DNA of 64,000 nucleotides from Candidatus Campbellbacteria bacterium GW2011_OD1_34_28. Lineage in GTDB: Bacteria > Patescibacteriota > Minisyncoccia > Phycocordibacterales > UBA12079. Of the stretch, positions 29,981 to 60,724 are shown piece by piece (position 1 is the first letter of the stretch; every line of letters starts with the position of its first letter). The stretch is from NCBI GenBank assembly GCA_001029775.1, contig CP011215.1, positions 274,685-338,684 of the forward strand, in the 5' to 3' direction. The notes beneath the pieces were generated by a model, which saw nothing but the letters and a program-made list of their open reading frames with translations, had not been told where the DNA came from and did no database searches. The position numbers and the translations under genes are program-made.

Positions 29981-30072
29981 AGTTTAATTAAAAATTAAAT
30001 TAAGCCAACAGCCGATAGCCGATAGCCAGGTTTTAAAAAATCTTGCTATAAGCTATAAGCTATAAGCTTTTG
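29981..30072. repeat. Leader module E, copy 1 (…gccgatagccgatagcc…gctataagctataagctataagc…), immediately 5' of rplK
   Basis: ~90% identical inverted copy at 60618-60724 upstream of recA; identity continues through ATGAAAAATATGGCAAA. Confidence 0.75.
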
Positions 30073-30078
30073 AAAAAT

Positions 30079-30501
30079 ATGGCAAAAGAAGTAATAAAAA
30101 AATTAAAGTTGCAAATTCCTGCGGGAAAAGCAACACCAGCACCTCCTACAGGACCAGCTCTTGGTCAAGCAGGAGTTAACATCAGTGAATTCGTAAATCA
30201 ATTTAACGAAGCAACAAGAGAAAAAGCAGGAAATATTATTCCTGTTGAAATCTCGGTTTATGAAGACAGAACATTTAGCTTTGTTTTGAAGACACCTCCA
30301 GCATCAAGACTTATTTTAAAAGCTCTTGGAGTTGAAAAAGGTTCAGGAAAAAATGTTTCAAAAAAAGTTGGTACAATAACAAAAGACCAAGTTAGACAAA
30401 TTGCAGAAGAGAAAATGCCTGACTTGAGTGCAAACGATGTTGAATCAGCTATGAAAATTATAGAGGGAACAGCTAGATCAATGGGTGTTGAAGTTAAATA
30501 A
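30079..30501 (+). CDS. rplK: 50S ribosomal protein L11
   Basis: [17 protein letters not shown]... Confidence 0.9.
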
Positions 30502-30510
30502 ATAAAATAA

Positions 30511-30545
30511 AAATGACAGAAGCCTTGCTTCTGTCATTTTTATTT
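30511..30545 (+). terminator. Intrinsic terminator after rplK
   Basis: aaatgacagaagc-ct-tgcttctgtcattttt. Confidence 0.6.
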
Positions 30546-30775
30546 TATTTATTTAACTTCAAGTAGTAAGGTGTAAGTAATAAGCAGAGAAAAGAATTTA
30601 GAAAATAGACCTGCCTGCCGTGTCGCTGCTTTTCTTTCAGAAAAGAGGCAGGATTTAGAATTTACCCCGTTTTTCTATAAGCTATCAGTTTTTCTGTTGA
30701 CTTCTTTTGTCTAAAAAACTATACTCGCTTTAGGAATTTTGAAATTCAAATCTCTAATCAAAAAGAGGTGCTTGT

Positions 30776-31423
30776 ATGTTCATAACATTGGAAGGTGGAG
30801 AAGGGGCCGGCAAAACGACCCAGATAGAAAGAATTTTTCAATATTTATCTCAAAAAGGTCATTCGTGTGTAAAGACGAGAGAACCTGGACACGGTTTTAT
30901 TGGGAGACAGATTCGTGCTTTGTTGATGCTTCCTGAAAATGAAACACTTGTTCCAACAGCAGAACTGCTTTTGTTTATGGCAGATCGGGCACAGCACATT
31001 GAATCATTTATTTTGCCCGAAATGCAAAAAGGCAACGTGGTTTTGTGTGATCGCTTTTTTGATTCAACAATTGTCTACCAAGGTTTTGCGGGAAGGATTG
31101 GTGTTGAGAGAGTGATTGCATTTCACGATGTTGTCTTTAGCCATTTTCGTCCCGATCTTACGATTTTGTTTGATTTGTCTCCCGAGGTTGGTCTTGCTCG
31201 GACGATGTGCCAGCTTGATCAAGGAGAGCGATGCGAGAGTGAATCTCGTTTTGAAAAAAAGATGTTGGATTTTCATGAAAGGATTCGTGAAGGATTTTTA
31301 GGTCTTTCAAAATTGGAGTCAAAAAGAATAAAAGTAGTTAATGCAGAATTTTCTCAAGAAGAAGTTTGGTCTCAGATCAAAAAAATTCTTGATGAATTTC
31401 TTGCGAACAACCCCGTCCAGTAG
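30776..31423 (+). CDS. tmk: Thymidylate kinase
   Basis: FITLEGGEGAGKTT P-loop, DRF motif. Confidence 0.85.
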   Translation: MFITLEGGEGAGKTTQIERIFQYLSQKGHSCVKTREPGHGFIGRQIRALLMLPENETLVPTAELLLFMADRAQHIESFILPEMQKGNVVLCDRFFDSTIVYQGFAGRIGVERVIAFHDVVFSHFRPDLTILFDLSPEVGLARTMCQLDQGERCESESRFEKKMLDFHERIREGFLGLSKLESKRIKVVNAEFSQEEVWSQIKKILDEFLANNPVQ

Positions 31424-31616
31424 ACGGGGTTTTAAATTTGAATATATGTAGGATTATTTAAAAATATCTTTTACCACTATCCCAAAATTTTAACGACCGT
31501 TAAAATTTTGGGATAAGGTTGTTTTTGTTGACTTCACCCGCTCAAATAACTATACTTCTTTTCAGGTTTGTTGTTCGTCATTAAAAGCCCATAAGGGCAA
31601 AACAAAGGAGAGGTCT

Positions 31617-32621
31617 ATGAGAAATCTGTTGGTTGTTCCGCCGTCGTCTGAGATTTTGCCGGACGATCTTGGTCTGGCACAGAGGATTGAATACACCGGT
31701 CGGATATGTTACAAAAGCGAAGATAAAATCACGCCTGATTCATCAGCCGGTTTTTGTCGGGACATGACAGGCCACAAACACAATTCTGTTCTTGAAATGG
31801 CCGTTCGGAGCTACTGGTTTAACATCAATTCTTACCCGTATATGAACGAGATTCTTAAATCAATCCCGAAATACCTCATCATTGATGAGGTTGGCATCGG
31901 AGAATGGTTTATAACAGGAAGTGTGCGGGCATTTCGTGAGATGTTTATGTGGTTTCCGGATAACGCGATTTTTCAGGCGATTGCATTTGATATCAACAAA
32001 TCGCACCCGTATTTTTTTGAAGACCTCAAGAAGATTCTCCCTGAATCAGCCCCAGCGAATGTTTCTTATCGTCAGATTCCCCTTGAGGAAATTGATCAAA
32101 TGTCCACAACAATTCAGGCGCGGCATCGTCATGTCGCGGTAAAGTTTATCGTTAATCGTGCCGTGACACACGAGATCGTTCGCCACCGTCCCTGCGCTTT
32201 TCTTCAGGAGAGCCAGCGTTACTGTCGTTACGGTAGTGGCAAATTCGGCGACAGGGTTACCTTTATCAAGCCGATGTTTTTCAAAGAGGACAGCGAAGGT
32301 TATCGTCTGTGGGAGCAGGCGATGCTGGAGACCGAGAGGATTTATCTTGACCTCGTTAACATGAAGGACGAGAACGGAAAAAATCTTTATACGGCTCAGG
32401 CCGCTCGTACGGTTCTTCCAAACTCGTGTAAGACCGAACTTTTTTTGTATGCCCCTCTGACAGAGTGGCATCACATTTTGCACATGCGTACCAGCAAAGC
32501 GGCAGAACCCTCTATGAGAGAAGTGATGGTTCCGCTTCAGCAAGAGTTCATCACACGCTGGCCCAACCAGAATTTCGGCGAACCTCTTCGGATGCCGGAA
32601 GGCCATGTGGTTCAAAGGTAA
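31617..32621 (+). CDS. thyX: FAD-dependent thymidylate synthase ThyX-like (long form, visibly higher GC than its neighbours)
   Basis: ThyX signature RHRPCAFLQESQRY (RHR-x7-S-x-RY), HNSVLEMA; AAAGGAGAGG RBS. Confidence 0.65.
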   Translation: MRNLLVVPPSSEILPDDLGLAQRIEYTGRICYKSEDKITPDSSAGFCRDMTGHKHNSVLEMAVRSYWFNINSYPYMNEILKSIPKYLIIDEVGIGEWFITGSVRAFREMFMWFPDNAIFQAIAFDINKSHPYFFEDLKKILPESAPANVSYRQIPLEEIDQMSTTIQARHRHVAVKFIVNRAVTHEIVRHRPCAFLQESQRYCRYGSGKFGDRVTFIKPMFFKEDSEGYRLWEQAMLETERIYLDLVNMKDENGKNLYTAQAARTVLPNSCKTELFLYAPLTEWHHILHMRTSKAAEPSMREVMVPLQQEFITRWPNQNFGEPLRMPEGHVVQR

Positions 32622-32661
32622 TAATTGAAATATTTACCAAAAAGAAAGGTCTAACTTTTCA

Positions 32662-32695
32662 CAAAGCCCCGACTTCGGTTCGGGGCTTTTTTTTA
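32662..32695 (+). terminator. Intrinsic terminator after thyX
   Basis: aaagccccgacttcggttcggggcttttttttat. Confidence 0.6.
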
Positions 32696-32723
32696 TCCTT
32701 TATTTAGGCTACTATATTGATTA

Positions 32724-34925: not shown

Positions 34926-35185
34926 ACTTAAAAGATAAAAGATGACCACAGCAAGACCGTGGTCATTTTTTGTTTGACTTTATGTTGTGTTTGAGTATTA
35001 TGTACACATAAATGTTCTTGATTAAATCTTGAAAAGAGATGCATTTGTAAGTATTTTCCGGCGTGGAAGACATTGGTTTTCCGGAAAACCAGAGTCAAAA
35101 CTTTCAGATGTTTAGCGAACGAACCGGTGTGAGGACACTGTCGCTGGTCTTTTCTCTCCTCATCTCTTTTCATCCTTGTTGTGTT

Positions 35186-35264
35186 GGGGCGTAGCTCAAT
35201 CTCTCTCTTGGCAGAGCGCCTGTTTGAGAACAGGAAGATGGTCGGTTCGAATCCGTCCGCTCCA
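35186..35264 (+). tRNA. tRNA-like element / probable degenerate tRNA (Ala-type GGGGC acceptor with G3:U70)
   Basis: GGGGCGTAGCTCAA[tctctctctt]GGCAGAGCGCCTGTTTGAGAACAGG...GGTTCGAATCC...CGCTCCA. The D-loop is ~16 nt, the T-stem has a mismatch and the anticodon loop reads GAG. Followed by a terminator at 35275-35300. Confidence 0.3.
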
Positions 35265-35299
35265 ATCAAAAATAAAAGTCCGCCTGTGGCGGACTTTTT

Positions 35300-36022
35300 C
35301 TATTGGTGGAGATTTTCTCTCCGCTCAGAAATATAGGCTCTCTTGATAGCGGTGTATTGGTCCACCGATCCATCCATAATACCTTTGTATGTTGGAGAAA
35401 AATCATGCCATAGATCGATAGAATCGGCTGATTGTAAAGAAAATCTTTCTACACTGCCGGTGTATTTTACTGGTGAAATAAAATATTCACCAAAATTACC
35501 AAAAGAACTGCGGAAAGTTCGGGGTCCAAATAATGGCCAGATGATGTAAACACCTTCGCCGACGCCCCAATAGGCAAGGCCTTGGTCGATGTCTTCTTCA
35601 TCTGGCGGGTTAAATTTTACTGGTCGAAAAATTCCGCCGATTCCAAAAAAAGAATTGTTAATTGTTTCATTCATTGTGAGACCGACAATTTCTCCTTTTC
35701 CTTGCATTGCTGCTCCAAAAAGACGAGTTGGAAATGAAAGGTTGTAAAAGAAATTTCCGATACAGTCTCGGACAGGCTCCGGAATTTTTTCGTAAAGATT
35801 TTTGTTGATTGGTTCCAGTACCCACATATAGAATTTGTCGTTGACGTAAAATGTGATTCTGTTCAGTGGTTCAAAAGGGTCCCATACTTCACACACTGTT
35901 TGCTCTTCGTCTGAAAGAGGGTCTTCATAAAAAACGCACCCTTCCGGTTTTTGAGCACAACCGATTTGAGTTGTAACCAATAATAAAAAAATTGACGAAA
36001 GAACCCATTCTTTTTTCTGCAT
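35300..36022 (-). CDS. MlaA/VacJ-family lipoprotein
   Basis: Signal peptide plus lipobox (QIGC), then DPFEPLNR...NFFYNLSFP...MQGKG...TMNETINNSFFGIGG, a close match to the MlaA domain; GC higher than the genome background. Confidence 0.65.
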   Translation of the reverse strand: MQKKEWVLSSIFLLLVTTQIGCAQKPEGCVFYEDPLSDEEQTVCEVWDPFEPLNRITFYVNDKFYMWVLEPINKNLYEKIPEPVRDCIGNFFYNLSFPTRLFGAAMQGKGEIVGLTMNETINNSFFGIGGIFRPVKFNPPDEEDIDQGLAYWGVGEGVYIIWPLFGPRTFRSSFGNFGEYFISPVKYTGSVERFSLQSADSIDLWHDFSPTYKGIMDGSVDQYTAIKRAYISERRENLHQ

Positions 36023-36125
36023 TTGCCCCTCCTTTTTTGTCGATGATAGACGGTTCTAGTATTTAGCGTATAGTAGTTTTGAATAATCTCAAAGGGGATA
36101 AATTTTGTTTAGATATTAAAAACAT

Positions 36126-36154
36126 TTGACATTTTTCTGTTTAGAATCTATCCT
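36126..36154 (+). promoter_or_regulatory. Sigma70-like promoter (TTGACA, 17 nt spacer, TATCCT) driving the small-ORF/rSAM operon
   Basis: ttgacatttttctgtttagaatctatcct about 55 bp upstream of the AGGAGG RBS. Confidence 0.45.
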
Positions 36155-36208
36155 TTTAAAAGGACTAGGTACTATTACGAAAATCTTTTAACCAGAGGAG
36201 GCGGTATC

Positions 36209-36310
36209 ATGAAGAGAAATGTGGCAAAAAAGAGCGGGAAGAAAATACCCCGTTCGAAAAAAAAGATTCGTGTGCGTATCGGCAAGGGTAGTTGCAGTAT
36301 TTGCGACTGA
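36209..36310 (+). CDS. 33-aa basic Cys-containing peptide (candidate rSAM substrate/precursor): MKRNVAKKSGKKIPRSKKKIRVRIGKGSCSICD
   Basis: Perfect AGGAGG RBS 7 nt upstream of the ATG; not in the ORF track (<60 aa); followed by a hairpin/terminator and the rSAM-SPASM gene. Confidence 0.4.
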   Translation: MKRNVAKKSGKKIPRSKKKIRVRIGKGSCSICD

Positions 36311-36320
36311 TCTCGGCAAA

Positions 36321-36347
36321 CAAGGAGGGCTCGCCCTCCTTGTTTTC
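36321..36347 (+). terminator. Inter-cistronic hairpin/attenuator (caaggaggg-ctcg-ccctccttg + TTTTC)
   Basis: 9-bp perfect stem then a T-run, between the small ORF and the rSAM gene. Confidence 0.5.
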
Positions 36348-36369
36348 AAATCAAGACAAGGGAGAAAAA

Positions 36370-37455
36370 ATGGATTGCAATACTGAAACACCAACATTAG
36401 ATGTTGAAATAGGTGATACTGTTTACGCAATTGAATTTGGACAGATTCAGATTGAAATTACCGGACTTTGTAATATGCATTGTCAGCATTGCAGGGCGTC
36501 GAATCAGCCTGTCGAGGAAATGAGTATTGATAATATCGTAAAAATTATCAAATTTGCTCGGCAGTTCAGCCCCAATTACAAAGAAATTGTCGTTTCAGGC
36601 GGTGAGCCAACATTGCATAGAGATTTTTCTGGCGTGTTGAAAGCTGTGAGAAAAAATGGCGGTGATTTTGTCACCCTTACTACAAACGGTTCCATTTTTA
36701 ATAAAACACATCTCGACTTGATCGAAAGCCTGGATTTTAAGCGCTTTGTTTTATCGGTCAGTATCGACAGTCTTGACGCCAAAGAGCACGACACTTTTCG
36801 TGGGTATCAGGGAGCGTTTGATAAAGCCGTTCGATCTTTGTCGTTAATTGCAGAAAGTAAACTTCCCAACATCGTTGCCTCGATGCGTTCTACCATCAAG
36901 GCTACACAAATCGACGATATGGAAGCTATGGCAGAATATGCTCAAAAAATAGGTTGTCAAAGAGTTAGTTTCTCTGCTATTCATCCGGCTGGTCGTGCCA
37001 TCTTGCGTCCTGATTTGTGGATGACCTCTGAGCAGAAACTCGCTTTTCTCAAAAACATCTACGCATTGAAGGAAAAATTTCCCGAGATGAACATCACGAC
37101 CAACGACCCTCTTAAATGTTTGTTGCGTGGCAAGAGTGATGTCGGAGGAGAAGACGAACTAGTCTTTGATGGTTGCGGAGCTGCGGCGATTACTTTCAAT
37201 GTAAATGCTGACGGGGTAATGACCCCTTGTGCGCTTCTGGATGTTCCGATGATGAACACGAAAAATCTTTCCATTGAGGAAATCACCGAACAGTATCGAA
37301 AAAACTGGATTGTGAGGAATATGCTCACTATGAATTTCGACGGTAAGTGTGGAACTTGCCCGACGAAATATCAGTGCGGTGGTTGTCGTGCCAGAGCATT
37401 GATTCAAAACGGCGACATGTTTGGCGAAGATCCTCATTGTTGGATTACACCGTAA
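36370..37455 (+). CDS. Radical SAM enzyme with C-terminal SPASM domain (peptide-modifying maturase-like)
   Basis: CNMHCQHC rSAM cluster, GGEPTL, C-terminal CGAAA...C...CGTCPTKYQCGGCRARA SPASM cysteines. Confidence 0.75.
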   Translation: MDCNTETPTLDVEIGDTVYAIEFGQIQIEITGLCNMHCQHCRASNQPVEEMSIDNIVKIIKFARQFSPNYKEIVVSGGEPTLHRDFSGVLKAVRKNGGDFVTLTTNGSIFNKTHLDLIESLDFKRFVLSVSIDSLDAKEHDTFRGYQGAFDKAVRSLSLIAESKLPNIVASMRSTIKATQIDDMEAMAEYAQKIGCQRVSFSAIHPAGRAILRPDLWMTSEQKLAFLKNIYALKEKFPEMNITTNDPLKCLLRGKSDVGGEDELVFDGCGAAAITFNVNADGVMTPCALLDVPMMNTKNLSIEEITEQYRKNWIVRNMLTMNFDGKCGTCPTKYQCGGCRARALIQNGDMFGEDPHCWITP

Positions 37456-37460
37456 TTTTT

Positions 37461-37496
37461 GCAAGCCACCCTTTGGATAAGGGGTGGCTTTTTTGT
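37461..37496 (+). terminator. Intrinsic terminator after the rSAM gene
   Basis: gcaagccaccc-tttggataa-ggggtggcttttttg. Confidence 0.6.
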
Positions 37497-37524: not shown

Positions 37525-40500
37525 ATGACTAACGAAAATAATATTAATAATAAATCTGAGACAGCCAAGAATGAAGAAAACATTATAAAGTTTTGGCAGG
37601 AGAACAAAATTTTTGAAAAATCCGTAGAGAAAGAAGCTCCGAACGGCGAGTTTACTTTTTATGACGGACCTCCTTTTGCTACCGGTCTTCCGCACTATGG
37701 GCATCTTTTGCCTGGGACGATGAAAGATATTATTCCTCGTTATCAAACAATGAAAGGCAAAAGAGTTAATCGTCGTTGGGGTTGGGATTGTCACGGTCTA
37801 CCGATTGAGAATTTGATTGAAGATGAATTGGGACTTAAAACAAAAAAAGATATTTTTGAACATGGAGTAGAAAAATTTAATCAGTCTGCAAAAGACAGCG
37901 TTCTTCGTTATGATGCTGATTGGAAAAAGATTATTCCAAGAACGGGAAGGTGGGTGGATATGTCGCACAGTTACAAGACTATGGACACGACCTATTCAGA
38001 AACTATTTGGTGGATTTTTAAAACTGTCTACGAAAAGAAATTAATTTATGAAGGACATAAAGCAATGCATTTGTGCCCTCGATGTGAAACAACACTTTCT
38101 AATTTTGAGGTTAATCAAGGGTACAAAGATATAAAAGATATTTCGGTTACTGCAAAATTTGAAGTTGAACATACCAATAGTACGAATGATACTAATGATA
38201 CGAATAATACAAATACTAAGACTTATATTTTAGCTTGGACTACTACACCATGGACTTTGCCTGGTAATGTTGCTTTGGCTGTCGGAAAAGATATCGATTA
38301 TGTAGAAGTAGAAGTTTTGCCAGAATCAGATATTAGAGAAGTTGGAAACACGGATTATAAAGTCCTTCCAATAGAATATTATATTTTAGCTAAAGAAAAA
38401 TTAGAAAGTGTTTTTGGGGGTCGTCGTTATAGCGTTAAGGAAGAATTTAAAGGATCAGAGCTTGTTGGAAAATCTTATAAACCGGTTTTTGATTATTATC
38501 AAAACGAAGATTTAGAAAATAAAGAAAACGGTTGGAAAATTTACGGGGCGGATTTTGTGACGACCGAGGACGGAACGGGAATTGTTCACATCGCTCCGGC
38601 TTTTGGATCGGACGATATGGAATTGGGAAAGAAAGAAAATTTGCCGTTTATTCAGCATGTCACAGTGGACGGAAAATTTAAACCTGAAGTAAAAGACTTT
38701 GTCGGTTTGACAGTAAAGCCAAAAGACACAAAAGAAGATGCCAGTGCGCACCTGAGAACAGATATTGAGATTGTCAGATGGCTACAAGAACACGACAAGT
38801 TTTTCTCGAAGGAAAATTTGGTCCACTCCTATCCTCATTGTTGGAGATGCAATACACCGCTTTTGAATTATGCGACATCATCGTGGTTTTTGAAGGTGAC
38901 CGATTTGAAGGATAAATTGTTGGAGGTAAATAGCAAAATTCACTGGGTGCCGGAACACATCAGAGACGGAAGATTTGGAAAATGGTTGGAAGGGGCGAGA
39001 GATTGGGCGATTTCCAGAACGCGTTTTTGGGGTGCACCTTTACCAGTTTGGAAATGTAAAGAATGTGACAATGTTCATGTACTTGGTTCTATTGAAGACC
39101 TTAAACAAAAAACAAGAGGCACTAACAAATATTTTGTAATGCGACACGGCGAAGCGGAAAACAATACTTTGAATGTTTCCAGCACGAAAGCAGAAAATCC
39201 CCATCACTTAACTGACAAAGGAAAAGAACAGGTATTGGGTGCGATTGCAAAATTGAAAGAAAAGAAAATTGATTTTATTATCTCGTCTCCTTTTGTTAGG
39301 ACAAAAGAGACGACTGAAATGATTGCGAAAGAAATCGGTATCAACGAAATAATTTTTGATGACAGATTGATAGAGGCACAGGTAGGTGATTTTGAAGGAA
39401 AAGATATTTCCGAATACAGAAATTATACGAAATCTTTGGAAGAAAAATTTTTGCAAACTCCGCCTAACGGAGAAAGTTTGACCGAGTTAAAAAACAGAGT
39501 AGGGGATTTTATTTACGAGATTGATAAAAAATATTCCGACAAAAATATTTTGATTGTTACTCATGAATATCCAGCTTGGTTGTTGATTGCCGTGACAAAA
39601 GGACTAAATGGCACAGAGGCGGTTGAATTGAAACACAAAGAAAATCTTTTTGAAAATGCCGACATAAAAGAATTGGATTTTGCACCAATTTCTCATAACA
39701 AAAATTATGAGTCTGATTTGCATATGCCATATATAGACGAGATAAAATTTGCTTGTGAATGTGGAGGAGAGATGGAAAGAATCAAAGAAGTTTTTGATTG
39801 TTGGTTTGAATCTGGCGCGATGCCTTATGCTTCGAATCATTATCCTTTTGAAAATCTGGACAAATTTAATCCTGAAAAAGGTATTGGTTTTCCGGCTGAT
39901 TTTATTGCTGAAGGAACCGATCAGACCAGAGGGTGGTTTTATACATCATTGGTTTTGTCGACCGCATTGTTTGAAAAAGCGTCTTTCCAAAATGTAATTG
40001 TAAACGGAATGATAATGGCAGAGGACGGCAAAAAAATGTCAAAGAGTCTCAGAAATTATCCCGATATTTCGTATATGTTGGATAAATACGGAGCGGATGC
40101 TCTAAGATACTATATTATTTCTTCTCCAGCTGTTCGTGCCGAGGATTTAAATTTTTCTGAAAAGGGAGTAGATGAGATTTTGAAAAAAATTATTTTGAAA
40201 ACAAAAAATGTTTTGTCTTTTTATGAATTGTATAAAGACGAAATCTCTGCAGAGGTTAAACCTCTGCAAAGCGACAATGTTCTTGATAGATGGATTATTG
40301 CTCGTTTGAATCAATTAATTGTAGAAGTTACGACAGGATTGGACAATTACGAATTAGATAGAGCATCCAGACCGATTGTTGATTTTGTCGAAGATCTTTC
40401 TACTTGGTATATTCGTCGTTCAAGAGATAGGTTTAAGGGGGAAGACGAAAAAGACAAGAATTTTGCAATAGAAACGACAGGTTTTGTTTTGAAAGAATTA

Positions 40501-41115
40501 ACAAAAGTAATGGCTCCGTTTATGCCGTTTGTCGCCGAAGAGGTTTATCAAAGAGTAAAAGGTAATGAAGGAAAAGAAAGTGTCCATTTAGAAAACTGGT
40601 CAGAAGTTGAAAAAGTGGACGAAAAGATTTTGGAAGAAATGAAAAGGGTGAGAGATATTGTGTCGCTGGCTTTGGAGGCGAGAGCAAAGACGGGGATAAA
40701 GGTGAGACAACCGCTTCAAAAGCTGACAGCTTACAGCCAACAGCCTACAGCAATGGACGAAGAATTGGTTGGTGTCATTAAAGATGAGGTGAATGTGAAG
40801 GATGTGGTATTTGAAAAAGGAGATGAAGAGAAGGTTGAATTAGATATAGAAATCACCCCGGAACTAAAAGCCGAAGGGCAATATAGAGAACTGCTTCGAA
40901 ATATTCAGAGGATGAGAAAAGATGCAAACCTTGTGCCGAACGATTTGGTAGAGTTGGAAGTAGAAACAGATGAAGTAGGAAAAGAATTGATAGAAAAATT
41001 TGCCGAAGATTTGAAACGTACGGCTGGATTAGAAAAAATAGAATTTGAGGGTGTCGATGACGGAGAAAATATAAAAATCGACAATCTAACTTTTAAAATA
41101 AAATTAGAAAAATAA
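37525..41115 (+). CDS. ileS: Isoleucine--tRNA ligase (type 2) carrying an inserted histidine-phosphatase (PGAM-like) domain
   Basis: HYGHLLP (HIGH), KMSKSLRN, WxCxxC zinc region, editing domain. Residues encoded ~39100-39700 read VMRHGEAENN...LTDKGKEQ...FIISSPFVRTKET...NGESLTEL...ILIVTHEYPAW, a PGAM branch-1 signature. Confidence 0.85.
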   Translation: MTNENNINNKSETAKNEENIIKFWQENKIFEKSVEKEAPNGEFTFYDGPPFATGLPHYGHLLPGTMKDIIPRYQTMKGKRVNRRWGWDCHGLPIENLIEDELGLKTKKDIFEHGVEKFNQSAKDSVLRYDADWKKIIPRTGRWVDMSHSYKTMDTTYSETIWWIFKTVYEKKLIYEGHKAMHLCPRCETTLSNFEVNQGYKDIKDISVTAKFEVEHTNSTNDTNDTNNTNTKTYILAWTTTPWTLPGNVALAVGKDIDYVEVEVLPESDIREVGNTDYKVLPIEYYILAKEKLESVFGGRRYSVKEEFKGSELVGKSYKPVFDYYQNEDLENKENGWKIYGADFVTTEDGTGIVHIAPAFGSDDMELGKKENLPFIQHVTVDGKFKPEVKDFVGLTVKPKDTKEDASAHLRTDIEIVRWLQEHDKFFSKENLVHSYPHCWRCNTPLLNYATSSWFLKVTDLKDKLLEVNSKIHWVPEHIRDGRFGKWLEGARDWAISRTRFWGAPLPVWKCKECDNVHVLGSIEDLKQKTRGTNKYFVMRHGEAENNTLNVSSTKAENPHHLTDKGKEQVLGAIAKLKEKKIDFIISSPFVRTKETTEMIAKEIGINEIIFDDRLIEAQVGDFEGKDISEYRNYTKSLEEKFLQTPPNGESLTELKNRVGDFIYEIDKKYSDKNILIVTHEYPAWLLIAVTKGLNGTEAVELKHKENLFENADIKELDFAPISHNKNYESDLHMPYIDEIKFACECGGEMERIKEVFDCWFESGAMPYASNHYPFENLDKFNPEKGIGFPADFIAEGTDQTRGWFYTSLVLSTALFEKASFQNVIVNGMIMAEDGKKMSKSLRNYPDISYMLDKYGADALRYYIISSPAVRAEDLNFSEKGVDEILKKIILKTKNVLSFYELYKDEISAEVKPLQSDNVLDRWIIARLNQLIVEVTTGLDNYELDRASRPIVDFVEDLSTWYIRRSRDRFKGEDEKDKNFAIETTGFVLKELTKVMAPFMPFVAEEVYQRVKGNEGKESVHLENWSEVEKVDEKILEEMKRVRDIVSLALEARAKTGIKVRQPLQKLTAYSQQPTAMDEELVGVIKDEVNVKDVVFEKGDEEKVELDIEITPELKAEGQYRELLRNIQRMRKDANLVPNDLVELEVETDEVGKELIEKFAEDLKRTAGLEKIEFEGVDDGENIKIDNLTFKIKLEK

Positions 41116-41191
41116 AGTTAAGCAAAAAGTGCAGTTAACTGCACTTTTTGCTTAACTTACACCTTGCACCTTACTCCTGTATACTGTCCCT

Positions 41192-41791: not shown

Positions 41792-42058
41792 ACGAGAAAA
41801 TAAGGGTTAAGGGGTAAGATATAAGGAGTGAGTAGAAAAAATAAGAAATAAAAAAAGCGGTACATGGTACCGCTGAAAGAACGAGGCGTTCGCTTCCTGT
41901 TCCTGGTATGGATATACTGCTTGAACGGTAGGGTGAAGTTGATCGGAAGCGAACGCTAATTTAATAATATATGAAAGTAGATTCTTGTCAATAAAAATTA
42001 GTTTCACTTGTATTACTAGCTAATTTTAAATTATTTCAAATTTGGTATAATTATCTTT

Positions 42059-49080: not shown

Positions 49081-49144
49081 GAATTGACTTGTCGTTCAAA
49101 AATCTCAATTCGGTATAATTTTTTAATTGGTTTTCAAAAATAAA

Positions 49145-50666: not shown

Positions 50667-53600
50667 ATGAATAAAATTAATTACGGAATGATCCTTGTGA
50701 TTATTGTTGCTTTTCTCTTTGTAGTCACATCTGATTTTTCAAATAAAACAAATAAAAACGAACAACTTGCTCTCGCTGCACCCGTTTCTGGTGGAGAAAC
50801 TGTCTCTGTTATACGACCAAGTTGTAGTGGTTATGAGCCTGGCACTTGTTTTACATCTCTTGCTAGTTGGGAAAGTAACTTTGGAGGAATAGATTTTGGT
50901 ACTTGTACTAGTGGTGATTTGGTGTGTGCTAATACAAGCGCCGTAGCAAAGATAGAAGGAAGCTGGACCACTGCTGACAATGCCATAATAATTAGTGGCT
51001 GGACAACATCTTCCTCAAATTATATCAAGATCTATACAGCATCAGATGCAAGGCATAGCGGAGTTTGGAGCAATAGTAAATATAGGATTTCTTCTACTGC
51101 CTCATCTATTGATGTGAGAGAGAAGAATGTGATTATTGATGGTTTGCAGTTGGTTTTGACAGGTTCTAATGGTTGGAAAAATGGCGTACGCTATGAGCCT
51201 GAAGAGAGCCTTATTTCTGGAGGAACACACATTGTTTCAAATTGTATTATAAAATCTACAAACACATCTACTTCGGGAATTAGTGGTATTAATGCAAGCA
51301 ATTGGGATTCAGAAAGTTCGGTGAGTTTTTATAACAATATTGTTTATGGGTTTTCTAATTATGGTATTTATTTAAAATTGCTTAATTCTTCTAATGCTTT
51401 TATTTATAACAATACTGTTTATGGAATAAACGGCAACGGAATAGAGGTGGGTAATAATTTTGCTTTGTTAAAAAATAATATTGTTCAAAATTCTTTGAAA
51501 AGTTATGTGGGCACAGCAAAAACAGGCTCTTCAAACAATATTTCTTCCGACGCTACAGCTCCTGGTTCTAATTCAAAAATAAATCAGACAGTGTCTTTTG
51601 TTTCGACAAGTGCGGGAAGTGAAGACTTCCACCTTTCTTCTTCTGACACCTCAGCAAGAGACGCTGGCATAAGTTTGAGCGGAGATAGCGGACTGTCTTT
51701 TTCAACGGATATAGATGGATCAGCAAGAAGTGGTGCTTGGGATATTGGAGCCGATGAACAAAGCGGTTCTGCTCTTCCTCCAGAACCTCCAACTTCCGAC
51801 ACAACCCCTCCAACAGTCACCAGTCCATCACCAAGTGGAACATTATCATCTGGGACAACATCGGTGACACTTTCGGTAACAACAAACGAAACATCTGTTT
51901 GTAAATATTCCACAATCGCCAACACTGCATATACATCAATGACAAACACAATGTCAACGAGCGGAAATACACACACAAAAATAATAAGTAGCTTAACAAA
52001 TGGAACAACTTACAATTATTACGTAAAGTGTAGAGACACAGCAGGGAACACGACAGCTTCTGATACTACAATTAGTTTTGGTGTGGCGAGTGTTGTTACA
52101 CCACCCTCAAGCTCATCTTTTAAACCAGTGGCAAGATTTGATGTCGTTCCATATCAAAGAATCGAATATGGCAATTCATTTAAAATAGGAGTAGTGGCTT
52201 TTTCCAAGCCGGGAATTCAAAGAGTTGAATTTAGTGCCACCGGTCAGGGCTATTCCGGTGGAACAAAAACTGTCACTTCAATGTCTCTCAATAGTACTAG
52301 CGGAGTATGGGAATATTGGACGACATTTTCTGCCAGTGAATTTACAGGCAATGGGGCTATCACTATTACCGCCTTGGTTAGAGATAATCAAGGGAATACT
52401 CGAAATCTTACCCTTCCGATGTTTGCATATGGTGCAAGTGCTTTTACGCCTGTTAAGATTTGGATAGACAACACTGTGGGAAATGATAGCACTTGTGCAA
52501 TTAATAAAGAGACGACTCCATGTAAAACTCTTTCTTCGGCAGTAACAAAAGTTAAGACCGCAAACGGCGGAGTGTGTGATGGAGCTGTTTTCTATTATCA
52601 AGAAGGAACTTATTCCAACTCAGCTTCTGTCACCGTCACAACTTCAGCTCAGTGGGCGACTATAACAAAAGATCCAGATGCCGATAAAAACAAAGTGATC
52701 CTTAACGGAGCTCCAAGTAGCGGAAGAATTTATGGTGGTTATGTTAAGTTCGATTCTGTTACGATGAAAAGTTTAGGAGCTTCTTCATATGTAGCTGATC
52801 CGGATCGTATTTGGACTAACAATTCTAGAAAGATTGGATCTGGTCGTTGGAATTCCAATTCAAATCCTATACAAATCAGTGATCCAGATAACCATTGGAG
52901 CACAAATGATTATACCTATGATGTAGATTTCGCTTATCAACGTGCCGCACTCGTAAGGGGGGCAACCATTGAAAAAGTGGGAAATGATACTTTTCAGAAT
53001 ACTCGAATGGTAGTTAACAGCACTATGAATGATTCTGATCACGGTACTAACTATGCTACACACAATGATGGTTATCAGGTATTTAATACAAATGAAGCGT
53101 CACCACCAGCAGACAATAGAATCATCTATAATTACAAAGCAACCAATATGCATTATCAGGGTATTTTCATGCGGTCCGATTTGGGGACTGCTACCAATAA
53201 TGCTTTTGTTAATGTTGTAATGGAAATGCGTGATCCAGCAAATCTAAATGAAGCTAACAACTATCCTCACTCTGCATTCGCGGCATATCATAATTGGGAC
53301 CACCTGATAATTTGGAACAGCTCATTCTTGTGGGGAAATTCTAGCATTTATACTTCTGGGCTTACAAATTCGTCTATTGTTGGAAATGTTTTCTTTTCTC
53401 TTGAAAATACAGAAACATCAGCTGGAAATCCAGTTGTTCCATCGATGGCACCTGGAAACGCTGGCAACAATGAAGTAATTCACAATCACTTTGAGTGGGT
53501 GTACGGAGTATCTCCATCTTGTTCTTATCTTGGAAGGTCTTCCGACACTCTTTATAATCCTGATAAAATTTGCCCAAGGTATTATGCAAAACGTCCTGAT

Positions 53601-54932
53601 TCTGATGCGGGGGTATCTTCTACCGTAGGCGGAGGCACAATTAACCTAGACAATCAATCCGCGTCCTTTCTTCGTCCGGTCGGCAGTATTTTGATTGGCA
53701 GATTCACATCTCGCGTTCCAGTCGATGTTAATAATGTAATCAGAGGTGCCTTGTCTGATGTGGGGGCTGTTGAACAAAGCGGTTCTTCTCTTCCTCCAGA
53801 GCCTCCAGCTTCCGACACAATCCCTCCAACAGTCACCAGTCCATCACCAAGTGGAACATTATCATCTGGAACAACATCGGTAACACTTTCAGTAACAACA
53901 AACGAAACATCTGTTTGTAAATATTCCACAACCGCCAACACTGCATATACATCAATGACAAACACAATGTCAGCGAGCGGAAATACACACACAAAAACAA
54001 TAAGTAGCTTAACAAACGGGACAACTTACAATTATTACGTAAAGTGTAGAGACACAGCAGGGAACACGACAGCTTCTGATACTACAATTAATTTCAATGT
54101 AGGAACTTCGAGCTCGCTTCCTGATACACAAGCTCCGACTGGTGGAACTATTTTAATTAACAATGGTTCTGACACAACCAATTCAGTAGATGTTATTTTG
54201 ACACTAAGTGCGAATGACAATGTTGGAGTAACTCAGATGAGATTTTCAAATAACAATTTGATATATTCAGAATGGGAGAATTACAGCACAACTAAAAATT
54301 GGATTTTGCCTTCTGGAGACGGAACAAAAACTATTTATGTTAAATACAGAGATTCCGCAGGAAACACTTCCTCTTCTGCGAGCGATTCAATTACTTACAC
54401 AACTTCTACTACACCACCTGTTAGTGGAGGAGGAGGTGGAAGCGGCGGAGGTGGAGGTAGTACCGGTGGAAGTAGCGGCGGAGGTGGAAGTATCAGTTAT
54501 CCCGGTCAAACAAATCCTACAAATGTTCCTGCTCCTACAAATATAATTACAGTTTTCACTCAAAATCTTTCTTTTGGATCAGAGAATGATATGGTAAGAA
54601 AATTGCAAGAATTTTTGGCAAGAGACAGAACAATCTATCCTGAAGGAATTATCAGTGGTTTTTATGGAAACATGACGCTTAAAGCGATACAAAGATTCCA
54701 ATCAAAATACAATATCGTTACTTCGGGAACTCCAGAAACTACTGGTTATGGAAGTGTTGGACCAAAGACAAGAATAAAATTGAATGAAATATATGGTGGT
54801 TCTCCAATAACAGCCGCATCAAATATTGCCAGATTAACCTTTGAACAAATTAATGCCATTGTTAACTTGCTAATTTCTTTCGGAGCAGACAATGCTGTTG
54901 TGGAAAATGTAAGAAACATTTTGAATCGGTGA
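50667..54932 (+). CDS. Large surface protein: signal/TM anchor, parallel beta-helix, two near-identical Fn3/Ig-like modules, Gly-rich linker, C-terminal peptidoglycan-binding domain
   Basis: PbH1-like NNxVYG repeats; two ~108-aa modules (VTSPSPSGTLSSGTTSVTLSVTTNETSVCKYS...YYVKCRDTAGNTT) ~97% identical at DNA level (51755-52077 vs 53773-54100); GGGGGSGGGGGS linker; PG_binding_1-like LQEFL...FQSKYNI...GPKT. Confidence 0.7.
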   Translation: MNKINYGMILVIIVAFLFVVTSDFSNKTNKNEQLALAAPVSGGETVSVIRPSCSGYEPGTCFTSLASWESNFGGIDFGTCTSGDLVCANTSAVAKIEGSWTTADNAIIISGWTTSSSNYIKIYTASDARHSGVWSNSKYRISSTASSIDVREKNVIIDGLQLVLTGSNGWKNGVRYEPEESLISGGTHIVSNCIIKSTNTSTSGISGINASNWDSESSVSFYNNIVYGFSNYGIYLKLLNSSNAFIYNNTVYGINGNGIEVGNNFALLKNNIVQNSLKSYVGTAKTGSSNNISSDATAPGSNSKINQTVSFVSTSAGSEDFHLSSSDTSARDAGISLSGDSGLSFSTDIDGSARSGAWDIGADEQSGSALPPEPPTSDTTPPTVTSPSPSGTLSSGTTSVTLSVTTNETSVCKYSTIANTAYTSMTNTMSTSGNTHTKIISSLTNGTTYNYYVKCRDTAGNTTASDTTISFGVASVVTPPSSSSFKPVARFDVVPYQRIEYGNSFKIGVVAFSKPGIQRVEFSATGQGYSGGTKTVTSMSLNSTSGVWEYWTTFSASEFTGNGAITITALVRDNQGNTRNLTLPMFAYGASAFTPVKIWIDNTVGNDSTCAINKETTPCKTLSSAVTKVKTANGGVCDGAVFYYQEGTYSNSASVTVTTSAQWATITKDPDADKNKVILNGAPSSGRIYGGYVKFDSVTMKSLGASSYVADPDRIWTNNSRKIGSGRWNSNSNPIQISDPDNHWSTNDYTYDVDFAYQRAALVRGATIEKVGNDTFQNTRMVVNSTMNDSDHGTNYATHNDGYQVFNTNEASPPADNRIIYNYKATNMHYQGIFMRSDLGTATNNAFVNVVMEMRDPANLNEANNYPHSAFAAYHNWDHLIIWNSSFLWGNSSIYTSGLTNSSIVGNVFFSLENTETSAGNPVVPSMAPGNAGNNEVIHNHFEWVYGVSPSCSYLGRSSDTLYNPDKICPRYYAKRPDSDAGVSSTVGGGTINLDNQSASFLRPVGSILIGRFTSRVPVDVNNVIRGALSDVGAVEQSGSSLPPEPPASDTIPPTVTSPSPSGTLSSGTTSVTLSVTTNETSVCKYSTTANTAYTSMTNTMSASGNTHTKTISSLTNGTTYNYYVKCRDTAGNTTASDTTINFNVGTSSSLPDTQAPTGGTILINNGSDTTNSVDVILTLSANDNVGVTQMRFSNNNLIYSEWENYSTTKNWILPSGDGTKTIYVKYRDSAGNTSSSASDSITYTTSTTPPVSGGGGGSGGGGGSTGGSSGGGGSISYPGQTNPTNVPAPTNIITVFTQNLSFGSENDMVRKLQEFLARDRTIYPEGIISGFYGNMTLKAIQRFQSKYNIVTSGTPETTGYGSVGPKTRIKLNEIYGGSPITAASNIARLTFEQINAIVNLLISFGADNAVVENVRNILNR

Positions 54933-54955
54933 TAGGGGGTGCTATTATTGTTTTT

Positions 54956-56271: not shown

Positions 56272-56332
56272 AATTTACAAAATAAGTTTTTTACTATAGA
56301 CTAAAAACTATAAACTAAAAACTATAAAAATT

Positions 56333-57113: not shown

Positions 57114-57116
57114 TTT

Positions 57117-57232: not shown

Positions 57233-57526
57233 ATGACAAATGAGAACAAAAGCCTTTGCTGGGTTGATGGGGATGCTTGTCCTTATCATAGTGGCTTGTC
57301 TTGTTTAAAAAATTCTCCGATAAATTCTTGTTCGCACTGTGTCAGATACGAACAAAATAAGGAACTAATTATTGACCTAATAGGAGATAGCATTGATTCC
57401 GTATTTGTAAGCGATGAGGACATTGGTGTAATATGCTCTCTTCTTAGGATTTTGAGAAAGCACGAGGAATATTTGTCACAAGACAGCGCTGAATCTCTTA
57501 AAAGAATCTTAAAACATTACGAATGA
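57233..57526 (+). CDS. Small Cys-rich protein (CWVDx3C...CxxC), hypothetical
   Basis: AAAGAGG RBS; N-terminus paralogous to the next ORF. Confidence 0.4.
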   Translation: MTNENKSLCWVDGDACPYHSGLSCLKNSPINSCSHCVRYEQNKELIIDLIGDSIDSVFVSDEDIGVICSLLRILRKHEEYLSQDSAESLKRILKHYE

Positions 57527-57533
57527 GGTGTAT

Positions 57534-58115: not shown

Positions 58116-58290
58116 CATCAAAAACCCGAGCACTCGCTCGGGTTTTTATAATTCAAAAATAACCAAACTATACTAAAACACTGACGGCCGTCAGAATTTT
58201 AGTATAGTTTATTTGCTTTTATTTTTGATATATTGTAACTTTATAGGTAGATATTTTTTCTTAATCATCTTTAGAATAGGAGAACCTGAA

Positions 58291-58686
58291 ATGTCAGAAT
58301 CGAAATATTCGGCGGAATGGCCGGAGAGATGGCGTCAATCAAAAGAGAAGTGGGAAGGGGTTGTTAGACGAGTTAAAAATAAGCAACGTTTTGATGTTGA
58401 TTCCATTGGATGGTATGATCTTCTTGTTGTTGCAGAATGTGGTTATTGTGAGGAATTTGTTGATAATCCCGAATCCCATGTTTCTCCTTGCCGACATTGC
58501 TCTCTTTTTAATGATAATTATTGTTCTTGCTATCAATATTCTAATGTTTTCTGGGATTTTGTCGGAAAAATGCGAAGAAAAGATTTTTGTGATGCGCAGG
58601 AGCTCGCCCAAAAAATGCTTGATCGGATTATGCAGGATGATCCGGAGAAAGCGATTGCTGATGTGGGCAAGAAAATCGAGGCGTGA
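58291..58686 (+). CDS. Cys-rich hypothetical protein (CGYCEEF...CRHC...CSCYQY)
   Basis: ATAGGAGAA RBS; terminator at 58693-58735. Confidence 0.4.
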   Translation: MSESKYSAEWPERWRQSKEKWEGVVRRVKNKQRFDVDSIGWYDLLVVAECGYCEEFVDNPESHVSPCRHCSLFNDNYCSCYQYSNVFWDFVGKMRRKDFCDAQELAQKMLDRIMQDDPEKAIADVGKKIEA

Positions 58687-58764
58687 ATATACAGGACGGA
58701 ATTTGCCGTAAGGCAAATTCCGTCCTTTTGTTTTTTAAATTTTATAATTTATTTACAAATTAGA

Positions 58765-58807
58765 CCTGCCTGCCGTGTCGTTGCTCTTCTTTCAGAAAAG
58801 AGGCAGG
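58765..58807. repeat. Repeat family B copy
   Basis: cctgcctgccgtgtcgttgctcttctttcagaaaagaggcagg. Confidence 0.7.
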
Positions 58808-58832
58808 AATTAGGATTTAGAAATTGGAGTGT

Positions 58833-58874
58833 CTAAGACAAAAAACATCGAGCAGTTGCTCGATGTTTTTTTGT
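58833..58874 (-). terminator. Intrinsic terminator of efp
   Basis: aaaacatcgagca-gt-tgctcgatgttttttgtttt. Confidence 0.55.
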
Positions 58875-58875
58875 T

Positions 58876-59433
58876 TTAGACACGACCGGTGTATTCGCCC
58901 TTTTCTGTATTTATTTCTATAATATCTCCTTCTTTTACGAAAATAGGAACTCCGATTGTTGCCCCTGTTTCTAACACAACAATTTTGTTTGCTCCTGTGG
59001 CTGTGTTTCCTTTAACTGCAGGAGGAGCTTCTTTTACTAAAAGTTGCACCTTGATAGGCAATGTTATTCCAATGGTTTTGTCTCCAAAAAGTTGAGCTTC
59101 AACAAGAGAGTTTTGCTTCATAAACTGTGATCCTGTTATTATTTCTTCTGGCAGACTAAATCGTTTACTTGGATCTTTTTCTTCACAAAACCAAAATTCT
59201 CCACGATTAGTAAAGAGATATTTTATCTTTTTTCTTTCGATGTTAGCTTCGTCAGCTTTTTCTGATTGGTGAAAAGATTTTTCTGTAACTTTTCCAGTAA
59301 TCAAATTCTTTAATTTTGTCTGGTTAACAGGTTTTCTTTGTTGCTTTCTAAATACATGAGAAGAAAGCACCTCATAAGGCTCTCCGTCTACTACAATGTA
59401 TTTTCTTTCTTTAATTTCGTTGTAATCTAACAT
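58876..59433 (-). CDS. efp: Elongation factor P
   Basis: KGNTATGANKIVVLETGATIGVPIFVKEGDIIEINTEKGEY; three-domain length. Confidence 0.8.
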   Translation of the reverse strand: MLDYNEIKERKYIVVDGEPYEVLSSHVFRKQQRKPVNQTKLKNLITGKVTEKSFHQSEKADEANIERKKIKYLFTNRGEFWFCEEKDPSKRFSLPEEIITGSQFMKQNSLVEAQLFGDKTIGITLPIKVQLLVKEAPPAVKGNTATGANKIVVLETGATIGVPIFVKEGDIIEINTEKGEYTGRV

Positions 59434-59606
59434 AAATTTAAATTCTAATCCTTTAATAGGGGATAGCTTACATATTTTCTGTGAATAATTCAAGTGTTAG
59501 GGCTACGAGCTATTATTTATAAGCTCATCGTTTCGTTTATTTTCGTTTTGTTTTTCTCTAGTTTTTTATTAAATCTTTAAATTTTTAAATCTTTAAATAT
59601 AAAAAT

Positions 59607-60611
59607 CTACGATTTTTTCAATTCCTCCTTAATTTTTTTGAATATTTCCGCAGAAACCTTTTTGTTTTCCTTCAAAAATGTTCTTGTGTTGTCATATCCA
59701 ACCGCGAGCTTTTCTTCTTCATAGCTATAAGTAGCTCCTTTTTTTACAATGATTCCAAATTTTTCTCCAAGAGCAATCATTTCTCCTTCTTTTGAAATAC
59801 CTTCGTCATACATCAAATCAAATTCGGCAACTCTGAATGGGGGAGCGACTTTGTTTTTTACTACCTTTACTCTCACTCTTCCGCCAATTACATCTTCACC
59901 TTTTTTAATTTGAGCGATTCTTCTCACATCCAATCTAACAGAAGTATAAAATTTTAATGCCTTTCCTCCGGGTGTTGTCTCTGGATTTCCAAACATAACC
60001 CCAATCTGCATTCTTATTTGGTTGATGAAGATAACCGTTGTTTTGCTTTTTGCAACAATCGCGGTAAGTTTTCGAAGTGCCTGAGACATCAGTCGGGCTT
60101 GTTTTCCCACATGGTGAGCCCCCATATCGCCCTCAATTTCGTCCTTTGGAGTAAGAGCAGCTACCGAGTCCACAACAACTATATCCACCTTTCCAGATCT
60201 AACCAAACTTTCTGTGATTTCAAGAGCCTGTTCACCATTGTCGGGCTGAGATACCAATAATTCTTTTATGTTTACACCGATTTTTTTTGCATATTCTGGG
60301 TCTAGAGCGTGTTCGGCATCAACAAAGGCACAGATACCTCCTTCTTTTTGAGCTTGGGCTACCGAATGAAGGGCAAGGGTGGTTTTCCCAGATGATTCTG
60401 GACCAAATATTTCAATTATTCTTCCTCGGGGGATTCCTCCAACACCTAGGGCGTGGTCAAGACTGATTGAGCCAGTAGAAATAGCACCTACATCTACTCT
60501 CGGTGCATCACCCAATTTTATTATAGCCCCCTCTCCAAATTTTGTTTGAATTTGAGCAATTGTATCTTCAATTCCCAAATTATCTTCTTTTTTTGTTGTT
60601 TTCTTTGCCAT
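59607..60611 (-). CDS. recA: Recombinase RecA
   Basis: [20 protein letters not shown]1/L2 loops. Confidence 0.9.
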
Positions 60612-60617
60612 GTTTTT

Positions 60618-60724
60618 CAAAAGCTTATAGCTATATAGCTTATAGTTTATAGCAAGATTTTTTAAAACCTGGCTATCGGCTATTGGCTATCGGCTGTTGG
60701 CTTAATTTAATTTTTAATTAAACT
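60618..60724. repeat. Leader module E, copy 2 (inverted relative to copy 1), immediately 5' of recA
   Basis: Reverse complement matches 29981-30072 including ...agcttttgaaaaa(t/c)ATGGCAAA. Confidence 0.75.

Follow-up and report, generated by a model that had tools for sequence, protein, structure and literature searches.

The DNA examined here is a stretch of 64,000 nucleotides (nt) from Candidatus Campbellbacteria bacterium GW2011_OD1_34_28 (assembly GCA_001029775.1, contig CP011215.1, positions 274,685 to 338,684 of the forward strand), hereafter referred to as the window and numbered from its first letter. On its plus strand, nusG (29402-29980; Pfam NusG/KOW) is followed by rplK, the gene for ribosomal protein L11 (30079-30501; assigned by Pfam). 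On its minus strand lie, in the order of transcription, ftsK (61172-63433), a Glucodextran_B-like gene of 116 amino acids (aa) (60772-61122) and recA (59607-60611; assigned by Pfam). The spacer between nusG and rplK and the spacer between the 116-aa gene and recA carry inverted copies of one leader module, 30.6 kb apart, and the origin and the possible role of this module are the subject of the present analysis.

The presence of inverted leader copies in front of rplK and recA had been proposed in a first-pass annotation, and was borne out by a repeat search of the window, by global alignment and by a shuffle control. The repeat search gave arms at 29951-30027 and 60678-60754 (77 nt, 99% identity) together with two further overlapping arms. 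By global alignment of 29951-30086 (plus strand) and 60754-60603 (minus strand), a total of 135 identical bases, one substitution and 16 gap columns were counted, corresponding to 88.8% identity over the alignment and 99.3% over ungapped columns. Two whole 7-nt units account for 14 of the 16 gap columns, the rest being one extra T in the recA-side right array and an end overhang. The repeat measures 136-151 nt per copy, and its left end lies 30 nt further out than had been drawn, at 29951 (inside nusG) and 60754. With the narrower boundaries drawn at first, self-alignment gave 85.6% identity over the alignment and 97.3% over ungapped columns. Such similarity is far above what chance would give. 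A 24-nt linker sequence and a 30-nt A/T box AAGTTTAATTAAAAATTAAATTAAGCCAAC each occur exactly twice in the window, with no match in 100 shuffles. Exact 24-mer scans for the linker gave no match in the GTDB species representatives and none in viral contigs, though diverged copies would escape such scans, and in the JGI metagenomes only the two expected sites, on one contig, were detected. The module was thus found as exactly two copies per genome, in two strains of one Candidatus Campbellbacteria species, and the exact-match scans offer no evidence for a wider family of copies.

The rplK-side copy, on the plus strand, begins with the last nine codons and the stop codon of nusG, TTGGACTTTTTACAAGTAAAGAGAATATAA (LDFLQVKRI*; 29951-29980), where the repeat arm starts and which forms the left end of the donor copy as identified below. 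Then follow an A/T-rich box AGTTTAATTAAAAATTAAATTA (29981-30002), in which a weak 9-bp A-U mini-hairpin is possible by folding prediction; a left heptad array AGCCAAC AGCCGAT AGCCGAT AGCC (30003-30027); a linker of 17 nt, AGGTTTTAAAAAATCTT (30028-30044); a right heptad array of 3.4 units of GCTATAA (30045-30068); and an A/U-rich, mostly unpaired pre-start sequence TTTGAAAAAT without Shine-Dalgarno motif, leading into ATGGCAAA at the right end of the identity (30069-30086). In the predicted fold, the left array supplies the 5' arm of a hairpin, the right array its 3' arm, and the apical linker a top 6-bp helix with a 4-nt loop.

On the recA side, on the minus strand, native heptads GGTGTAAGGTAAAAGTA after the stop codon of the 116-aa gene (60755-60771) mark the left junction of the insertion and are identical in the congener locus L088. 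Next to them lies a non-coding fossil of the nusG 3' end (60725-60754), identical in 30 of 30 positions to 29951-29980, followed by the leader copy proper (60612-60724), delimited by alignment and folding. This copy is composed of the A/T box (60724-60703), a left array of three units (60702-60671), the linker (60670-60654), a right array of four units with one G>A change and one extra T (60653-60622) and the pre-start sequence TTTGAAAAAC (60621-60612). The heptads that the annotation had described are present, in numbers that are unequal between the copies: the left array has two AGCCGAT units on the rplK side against three AGCC(G/A)AT units on the recA side, and the right array three GCTATAA units against four, one of the four with the extra T. 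The left array of the rplK-side copy has one unit fewer than both the recA copy and the rplK copy of the second strain, and its right array one unit fewer than the other copies. Two details of the annotation had to be given up. For the start MKNMAK, considered beside MAK, no ATGAAAAATATG is present; TTGAAAAA(T/C)ATGGCAAA is found instead, so both genes begin MAK. The upstream in-frame codon is TTG, and MAK agrees with the N-termini of L11 and RecA in relatives. A supposed third member near 15.2 kb shares only AGCTATN heptads (15291-15322), without A/T box and without linker, and was said to lie upstream of an HMA gene. Both neighbouring genes are on the minus strand, and the site is in fact downstream of the HMA/DsbD_2 gene (15331-16353), with a cupredoxin-like gene (14789-15196) following it.

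The direction of copying can be read from the two ends of the module. The recA-side copy holds the complete 30-nt coding tail of nusG in a non-coding position, after the stop codon of the 116-aa gene, and because this fossil sits upstream of recA, the nusG-rplK region is taken as the donor. The tail is genuine coding sequence, the NusG protein of the window ending in ...TPVELDFLQVKRI and that of Escherichia coli in ...TPVELDFSQVEKA. At the right end, ATGGCAAA is native to both genes, as rplK of congeners begins ATGGCAAAAGAA and recA of two congeners without the module (L089 and L098) begins with the exact ATGGCAAAGAAAACAACAAAAAAAGAAGAT of the window. Many more distant Patescibacteria also begin recA with ATGGCAAA, and spacers of 10-30 nt precede recA in more distant relatives. 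From these comparisons the shared ATGGCAAA start is a pre-existing microhomology, with no movement of coding sequence. Transfer of recA coding sequence was ruled out, since the codons after ATGGCAAAG are identical in congeners without the module. The empty target site is represented by L089 and L098, where a spacer of 51-65 nt without the module precedes a recA start identical to that of the window.

The exact RecA, L11 and NusG proteins of the window were found in many public assemblies named Candidatus Campbellbacteria (Patescibacteria/Paceibacterota). The same strain as the window is represented by ENA ERZ27254739 (L001, L002) and by GCA_003489565.1 (L003; 99.87% identity), and a second strain, 83-99% identical to the window in a mosaic pattern, by L004, L005 and JGI contig Ga0155757_102 (L086, L087). 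In strain 2, one contig of 57 kb carries both copies of the module, again inverted relative to each other. They are separated by 25.3 kb, less than in the window, as strain 2 lacks a gene for a 1421-aa Ig-like/peptidoglycan-binding surface protein (50667-54932, with a 300-nt internal repeat at 94% identity). Since independent assemblies and the second strain carry both copies, the repeat is not an assembly artefact.

The recA loci of relatives and, from the same assemblies, their nusG-rplK loci were then compared, identities being taken over recA, ftsK and efp. In the window and strain 2 (about 99% identity), recA is preceded by the 30/30 nusG fossil and the AGCCGAT/GCTATAA hairpin, and the same hairpin occupies the nusG-rplK spacer. 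In L089 and L097, from one sample (about 92%), recA has a 51-nt spacer with no module, and the nusG-rplK spacer consists of AGCGTAT heptads, a central hairpin and ACCCTAT heptads. L098 (about 89%, over recA) resembles L089 upstream of recA, and L090 (about 78%) is also free of the module. In L088 and L094, from one metagenome-assembled genome (about 90%), recA has the same left junction, GGTGTAAGGTAAAAGTA followed by TTGG, identical to that of the window, and then a decayed fossil and an unrelated CTCTAAA/TTTAGAG heptad hairpin (-38 kcal/mol, z -8.8), the nusG-rplK spacer there carrying ATTTTAA-type heptads. The L088 fossil, TTGGGTTTTTTATAAGTAAAAAAATATAA, differs at 5 of 30 positions from the nusG tail of the window and at 9 of 30 from the nusG tail of its own genome. 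A possible remnant of the native recA-proximal leader in L088 (…TTAATTGTT ATG against …TTTTAGTGTT ATG in L089) is too A/T-rich for a call. Between the window, L094 and L097, the nusG-rplK spacers show no relationship. Paralogues within a genome are thus closer than orthologues between lineages, as seen from the 30/30 fossil of the window against the decayed fossil at the same junction in L088.

These observations altogether point to two events. The insertion upstream of recA is old, because L088, at about 90% identity, has the same left junction and a decayed fossil. The present copy was written again more recently by gene conversion, because the spacers turn over fast and yet the recA copy equals the present-day nusG-rplK spacer and its fossil is perfect. 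In this account, a block of about 136-151 nt, running from 30 nt before the end of nusG through the entire spacer to the start of rplK, would have been copied into the short spacer between the 116-aa gene and recA, and the recA-side copy would later have been overwritten by ectopic gene conversion from the present nusG-rplK spacer. Homology for the conversion would have been provided by the old nusG fossil on the left and by the native ATGGCAAA of both genes on the right. The simplest account would place this conversion, from nusG-rplK to the recA leader, between the divergence of this species from the L089 lineage and the later divergence of its two strains. The annotation had left open whether the module serves co-regulation or recombination. 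The part concerning recombination stands in the form of gene conversion, as judged from the fossil that is perfect here and decayed in L088, but not in the form of inversion, and the part concerning an operator could not be upheld (see below). The origin by old duplication from nusG-rplK and later gene conversion is considered highly probable.

With regard to the role of the module, the two arrays are mutually complementary, and folding predicts 5-bp helices (AUAGC/GCUAU) parted by 2x2 internal loops and capped by the linker helix AGGUUU/AAUCUU. The predicted hairpin has a free energy of -25 to -29 kcal/mol (z -2.8 to -4.3) in all four copies of the two strains. The distance to the AUG is about 12 nt from the end of its core 3' arm and 9 nt from the outermost predicted pair. 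Unit number is polymorphic, with two versus three and three versus four units between the rplK copies of the window and strain 2; in the window copy one unit was lost in each arm, and with them one helical module, leaving the hairpin shorter but kept. One A>G change in strain 2 leads to a G.U pair. A Shine-Dalgarno-like motif precedes only 6 of the 60 open reading frames (ORFs) of the window, so initiation at open A/U-rich regions appears to be the norm in this DNA.

Both genes appear to be internal cistrons, of secE-nusG-rplK and ftsK-116aa-recA transcripts, in which the module would be an intercistronic RNA, because the nusG-rplK spacer shows no conserved promoter block and recA lies close behind the 116-aa gene in relatives (only 10-65 nt). 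A sigma-70-like promoter, TTGACT-17-TAGTAT (29070-29098, plus strand), lies upstream of secE (29201-29380), is conserved in the congener locus L094, and is the probable source of a transcript reading through nusG into rplK. The conserved block between the window and L094 extends over 29070-29135 and contains, after this promoter, a GNRA-capped hairpin GGCCCGAAAGGGCTTTT; outside this block the secE leader differs, and GCTGTNA heptads occupy it in L094. On the other side, rplK is followed by a perfect 36-bp palindrome/terminator overlapping its stop codon (30488-30562) and then by tmk-thyX (to 31423). In all lineages compared, including both congeners, the gene next after rplK is tmk and not rplA. 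Brown et al. (2015) reportedly described an OD1 subgroup without L1, and the absence of rplA after rplK would fit this.

As an intercistronic RNA, the hairpin would determine how the cistrons on either side are processed or how stable they are, and perhaps also the access of ribosomes to the start codon. Gain and loss of 7-nt units would alter its length and thereby provide a tunable parameter, and recA would share with rplK both the leader and the region in which translation is initiated. No rnc gene was detected among the ORFs scanned in the window. The function as intercistronic RNA leader, which is modelled from the predicted fold and gene order, is put forward tentatively, at somewhat short of an even chance. 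The best explanation as a whole is that the module is a dispersed segmental duplication that serves as an intercistronic leader, and not a regulator-binding site, with a probability of roughly 0.55.

Several points weigh against this explanation. By four-point distances, L089 is sister to this species and L088 lies outside; this requires either a loss of the insert in L089 and L098 or a transfer of the region between lineages by recombination. Two changes in the recA copy of the window weaken the stem. The four copies are too alike for compensatory covariation to appear (none in 24 pairs), and the structure is a thermodynamic prediction. Congeners do not share the hairpin, with z values of 0.0 for the rplK spacer of L094 and of -0.3 and +1.0 for the recA leaders of L089 and L090, respectively, and the hairpin in the rplK spacer of L097 differs from that of the window. 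Moreover, recA of L089 and L098 is without the module. Any function of the module must be dispensable or replaceable, because the hairpin is unconserved and these two congeners lack the module. Both co-transcription and the role at the RNA level are deduced from sequence.

For these reasons a purely neutral status is a serious rival, although we regard it as rather unlikely. The module would then be a piece of junk spacer carried as a passenger after illegitimate recombination, its similarity between the copies would reflect recency or gene conversion, and the hairpin would be a by-product of heptad dynamics. In agreement with neutrality, leaders turn over fully between congeners at 90-92% identity, some congener leaders are unstructured, recA is intact in L089 and L098 even though the module is absent upstream, and the recA copy of the window carries the two stem-weakening changes. 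The divergence of the module between the two strains (one substitution and indels in about 136 nt) is also not below the regional background of 2.7%. Neutral drift does not readily account for the loss of one unit in both arms of the rplK hairpin of the window, nor for the significant stability of the hairpin in all four copies. In addition, the arrangement of stop codon, hairpin and/or heptads, and A/U-rich start recurs in many spacers of the window and of congeners, which suggests at least a generic role.

A shared promoter or operator, in which a DNA-binding factor recognizes the heptads and co-regulates the transcription of rplK and recA, was the reading first proposed, and it is now considered quite improbable. 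Direct repeats are indeed located upstream of two genes, and a -35-like TTGCTA and a -10-like TATAAG hexamer are found inside the right array. A sigma-70 scan, however, detected no site in either copy, and the spacing between TTGCTA and TATAAG is 12 nt in the three-unit form and 19 nt in the four-unit form, both of which the essential gene rplK tolerates. Sigma-70 and terminator scans of both loci gave nothing inside the module, the only hits being the palindrome after rplK and the tmk promoter. The promoters of tmk (TTGACT-17-TATACT) and secE (TTGACT-17-TAGTAT) are of the sigma-70 type and are kept across congeners, with the surrounding leaders changing completely, while the nusG-rplK spacer is unconserved. 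Furthermore, the arrays are not one site repeated but have distinct sequences that are mutually complementary, as the arms of a hairpin, and heptads of unrelated sequence occur everywhere in the intergenic DNA of this genus. No ribosomal-protein leader was detected by Rfam either, the matches being tRNAs and sub-threshold noise when the whole window was scanned at the gathering threshold and 29850-30250 at E<=10. The best match near the module, PYLIS_4, scored 25 bits, where the gathering score is 50. L1-mediated feedback was ruled out, as rplA does not follow rplK.

The inverted orientation had also suggested a switch, in which recombination between the copies flips the 30.6 kb between them, so that rplK and recA exchange their upstream contexts. 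This is very unlikely, even though the copies, of 136-151 nt, are nearly identical and inverted, and RecA, RecO, RuvX and an MgsA-like protein are all encoded within the window. Alternative neighbourhoods of recA and rplK were sought in contigs carrying the exact proteins, and none was found: the order ftsK-116aa-recA-efp was present in 25 of 25 recA contigs, and secE-nusG-rplK-tmk in every rplK place listed, from about 25 assemblies. This evidence on orientation comes from consensus assemblies, in which rare variants would not show. The single 57-kb contig of strain 2 has the same orientation, congeners keep both adjacencies, and a Pfam scan detected no invertase or recombinase gene flanking either copy.

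The least probable of the readings is a miniature mobile element (a miniature inverted-repeat transposable element, a repetitive extragenic palindromic (REP) sequence or a Correia-like element) inserted separately at both sites, for although the module is small, structured, palindrome-rich and intergenic and the genome has a true REP-like family (CCTGCCTGCC...GGCAGG), the module exists in two copies only, one end is authentic nusG coding tail and the other the native start ATGGCAAA of each gene, and the ends show neither terminal inverted repeats nor a target-site duplication. The members of this G+C-rich REP-like family (CCTGCCTGCC...GAAAAGAGGCAGG) lie at 6236-6293, 14077-14134, 30596-30664, 58751-58819, 1586-1661, 14187-14240 and 17413-17446. 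Two direct copies are located just inside the rplK/recA module pair, and two perfect 58-nt inverted copies (6236-6293 and 14077-14134) flank a type I restriction-modification island (6479-13924) with hsdM, hsdS and hsdR together with DUF4145 and SocA-like genes.

The heptad arrays of the module belong to a wider pattern. With Tandem Repeats Finder (TRF), period-7 arrays of many different units were identified in spacers across the window, period 7 being the dominant intergenic tandem period and covering 265 of 6776 intergenic bases versus 48 of about 57,000 coding bases. Per 100 kb, near-perfect period-7 arrays cover 203 nt of the window, 370 nt of congener loci, 52 nt of loci of other Patescibacteria and 10 nt of proteobacterial control loci; the excess of period 7 in this genus is therefore 4-7-fold over other Patescibacteria loci and 20-37-fold over proteobacterial loci. 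Arrays of the window are located at 556-580, 4829-4904, 15202-15248, 15291-15322, 30561-30585, 41156-41178, 56300-56328 and 60762-60780, and those of relatives at L088 2777-3000, L094 3580-3658 and 2560-2600, L097 817-899, and upstream of recA in L034. The units are varied (TAAGTAG, TACTCAC, CTTACCC, AGCTATC, CTTACAC, ACTAAAA and others), and an array is often found after a stop-proximal hairpin and ahead of the next start codon. The arrays characterise the genome as a whole, and not rplK and recA in particular.

Among known systems, the 5' untranslated region of hmw1A/hmw2A in Haemophilus influenzae contains a heptanucleotide simple sequence repeat (SSR) that forms an arm of a long hairpin, which is cut by RNase III, and expression depends on the number of units (PMC12721329). 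The module resembles this leader in having a 7-nt SSR before the start codon, a hairpin arm near the start and unit numbers varying between strains. It differs in that both arms are SSRs (AGCCGAT and AAGCTAT) with 2-4 units each, as opposed to 10 or more in hmw, and in that the genes are the housekeeping genes rplK and recA of a bacterium of the candidate phyla radiation (CPR), not a phase-variable adhesin gene. The hmw leader is the closest experimentally characterised counterpart. An extension of the analogy, in which heptad-SSR hairpins would constitute a genus-wide RNA expression device tunable by copy number, similar to hmw but with two complementary SSR arms, and in which repeated conversion from nusG-rplK to recA would be selected, is considered a long shot. 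Conversion would then keep recA yoked to the leader of a ribosomal-protein gene and so tie the capacity for recombination and repair to the making of ribosomes, in a symbiont of reduced genome in which classical SOS control may be absent.

Short intergenic arrays of the heptamer TAACTGA are known in Beggiatoaceae, cyanobacteria and Bacteroidetes (PMC4679880). As in this genus, they are often located just before starts without ribosome-binding sites, including those of ribosomal-protein genes. Those systems use one dominant heptamer genome-wide, suggesting a single binding factor, whereas here nearly each spacer has its own heptamer, which changes between congeners. The short tandemly repeated repetitive heptamers of cyanobacteria are comparable, but again with one dominant unit.

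Ectopic gene conversion and concerted evolution of dispersed repeats are represented by tufA/tufB of enterobacteria, and the capture of a promoter or leader by duplication by rnk-citT in the E. coli long-term evolution experiment. The module is similar to the former in that dispersed copies are more alike within a genome than orthologues between lineages, and to the latter in that a piece of the upstream region of one gene was placed before an unrelated gene. It is different from both with respect to the tract, which is non-coding and about 140 nt long, to the joining of unrelated genes via an 8-nt start ATGGCAAA, and to the lack of evident promoter capture. The REP sequences and bacterial interspersed mosaic elements of enterobacteria are likewise imperfect palindromes between cistrons, with possible roles as RNA stabilisers or attenuators, but REPs are high-copy with a conserved consensus, and the module has two copies and a traceable donor. 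The leader of the E. coli L11 operon (rplKA), which mediates translational feedback by L1, is also a structured RNA directly upstream of rplK. Unlike this leader and the ribosomal-protein leaders of Rfam, the module has no Rfam match, is not accompanied by rplA after rplK, and has a structure that is unconserved in congeners.

Several other features of the window were recorded. Many starts are preceded by a TATAAT-like hexamer 4-9 nt upstream, for instance at 4905-4927, 42038-42058, 49106-49126 and 41173-41191 and, on the minus strand, at 28995-29020; hexamers so near to the starts may point to leaderless or near-leaderless mRNAs. MlaA and tmk/thyX have Shine-Dalgarno-like motifs, unlike most genes here, which hints at possible acquisition from elsewhere. 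The segment of MlaA and a radical-SAM gene (35173-37486) is absent from strain 2. At 35176-35267, ARAGORN predicts a tRNA to which it assigns no definite type and whose anticodon, 'cttg', has four bases, and for which the Rfam tRNA score is only 40 bits; it could be intron-containing or otherwise unusual. An isoleucyl-tRNA-synthetase-like protein of 1196 aa (37525-41115) has a histidine-phosphatase (His_Phos_1) domain inserted at residues 537-710, and no other segment diverges as much between the two strains as its gene (83% identity).

The kinds of event involved, dispersed duplication with concerted evolution and an SSR-hairpin leader, are known, and what is new is this instance; as a duplication it is fairly ordinary and would not surprise a specialist. 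It provides, in a CPR bacterium of very small genome, a clean and datable case in which a short non-coding leader was copied between unrelated essential genes and its identity was then maintained by gene conversion. The case indicates that homogenisation of the RecA type acts on tracts of about 140 bp in these organisms, and that intergenic leaders turn over extremely fast. The heptad arrays, often hairpin-forming, are a broader and little-described feature of the genus, and represent a more promising lead than the duplication itself. Should they adjust expression in the manner of the hmw leader, they would offer a general means of regulation to organisms with very few transcription factors.

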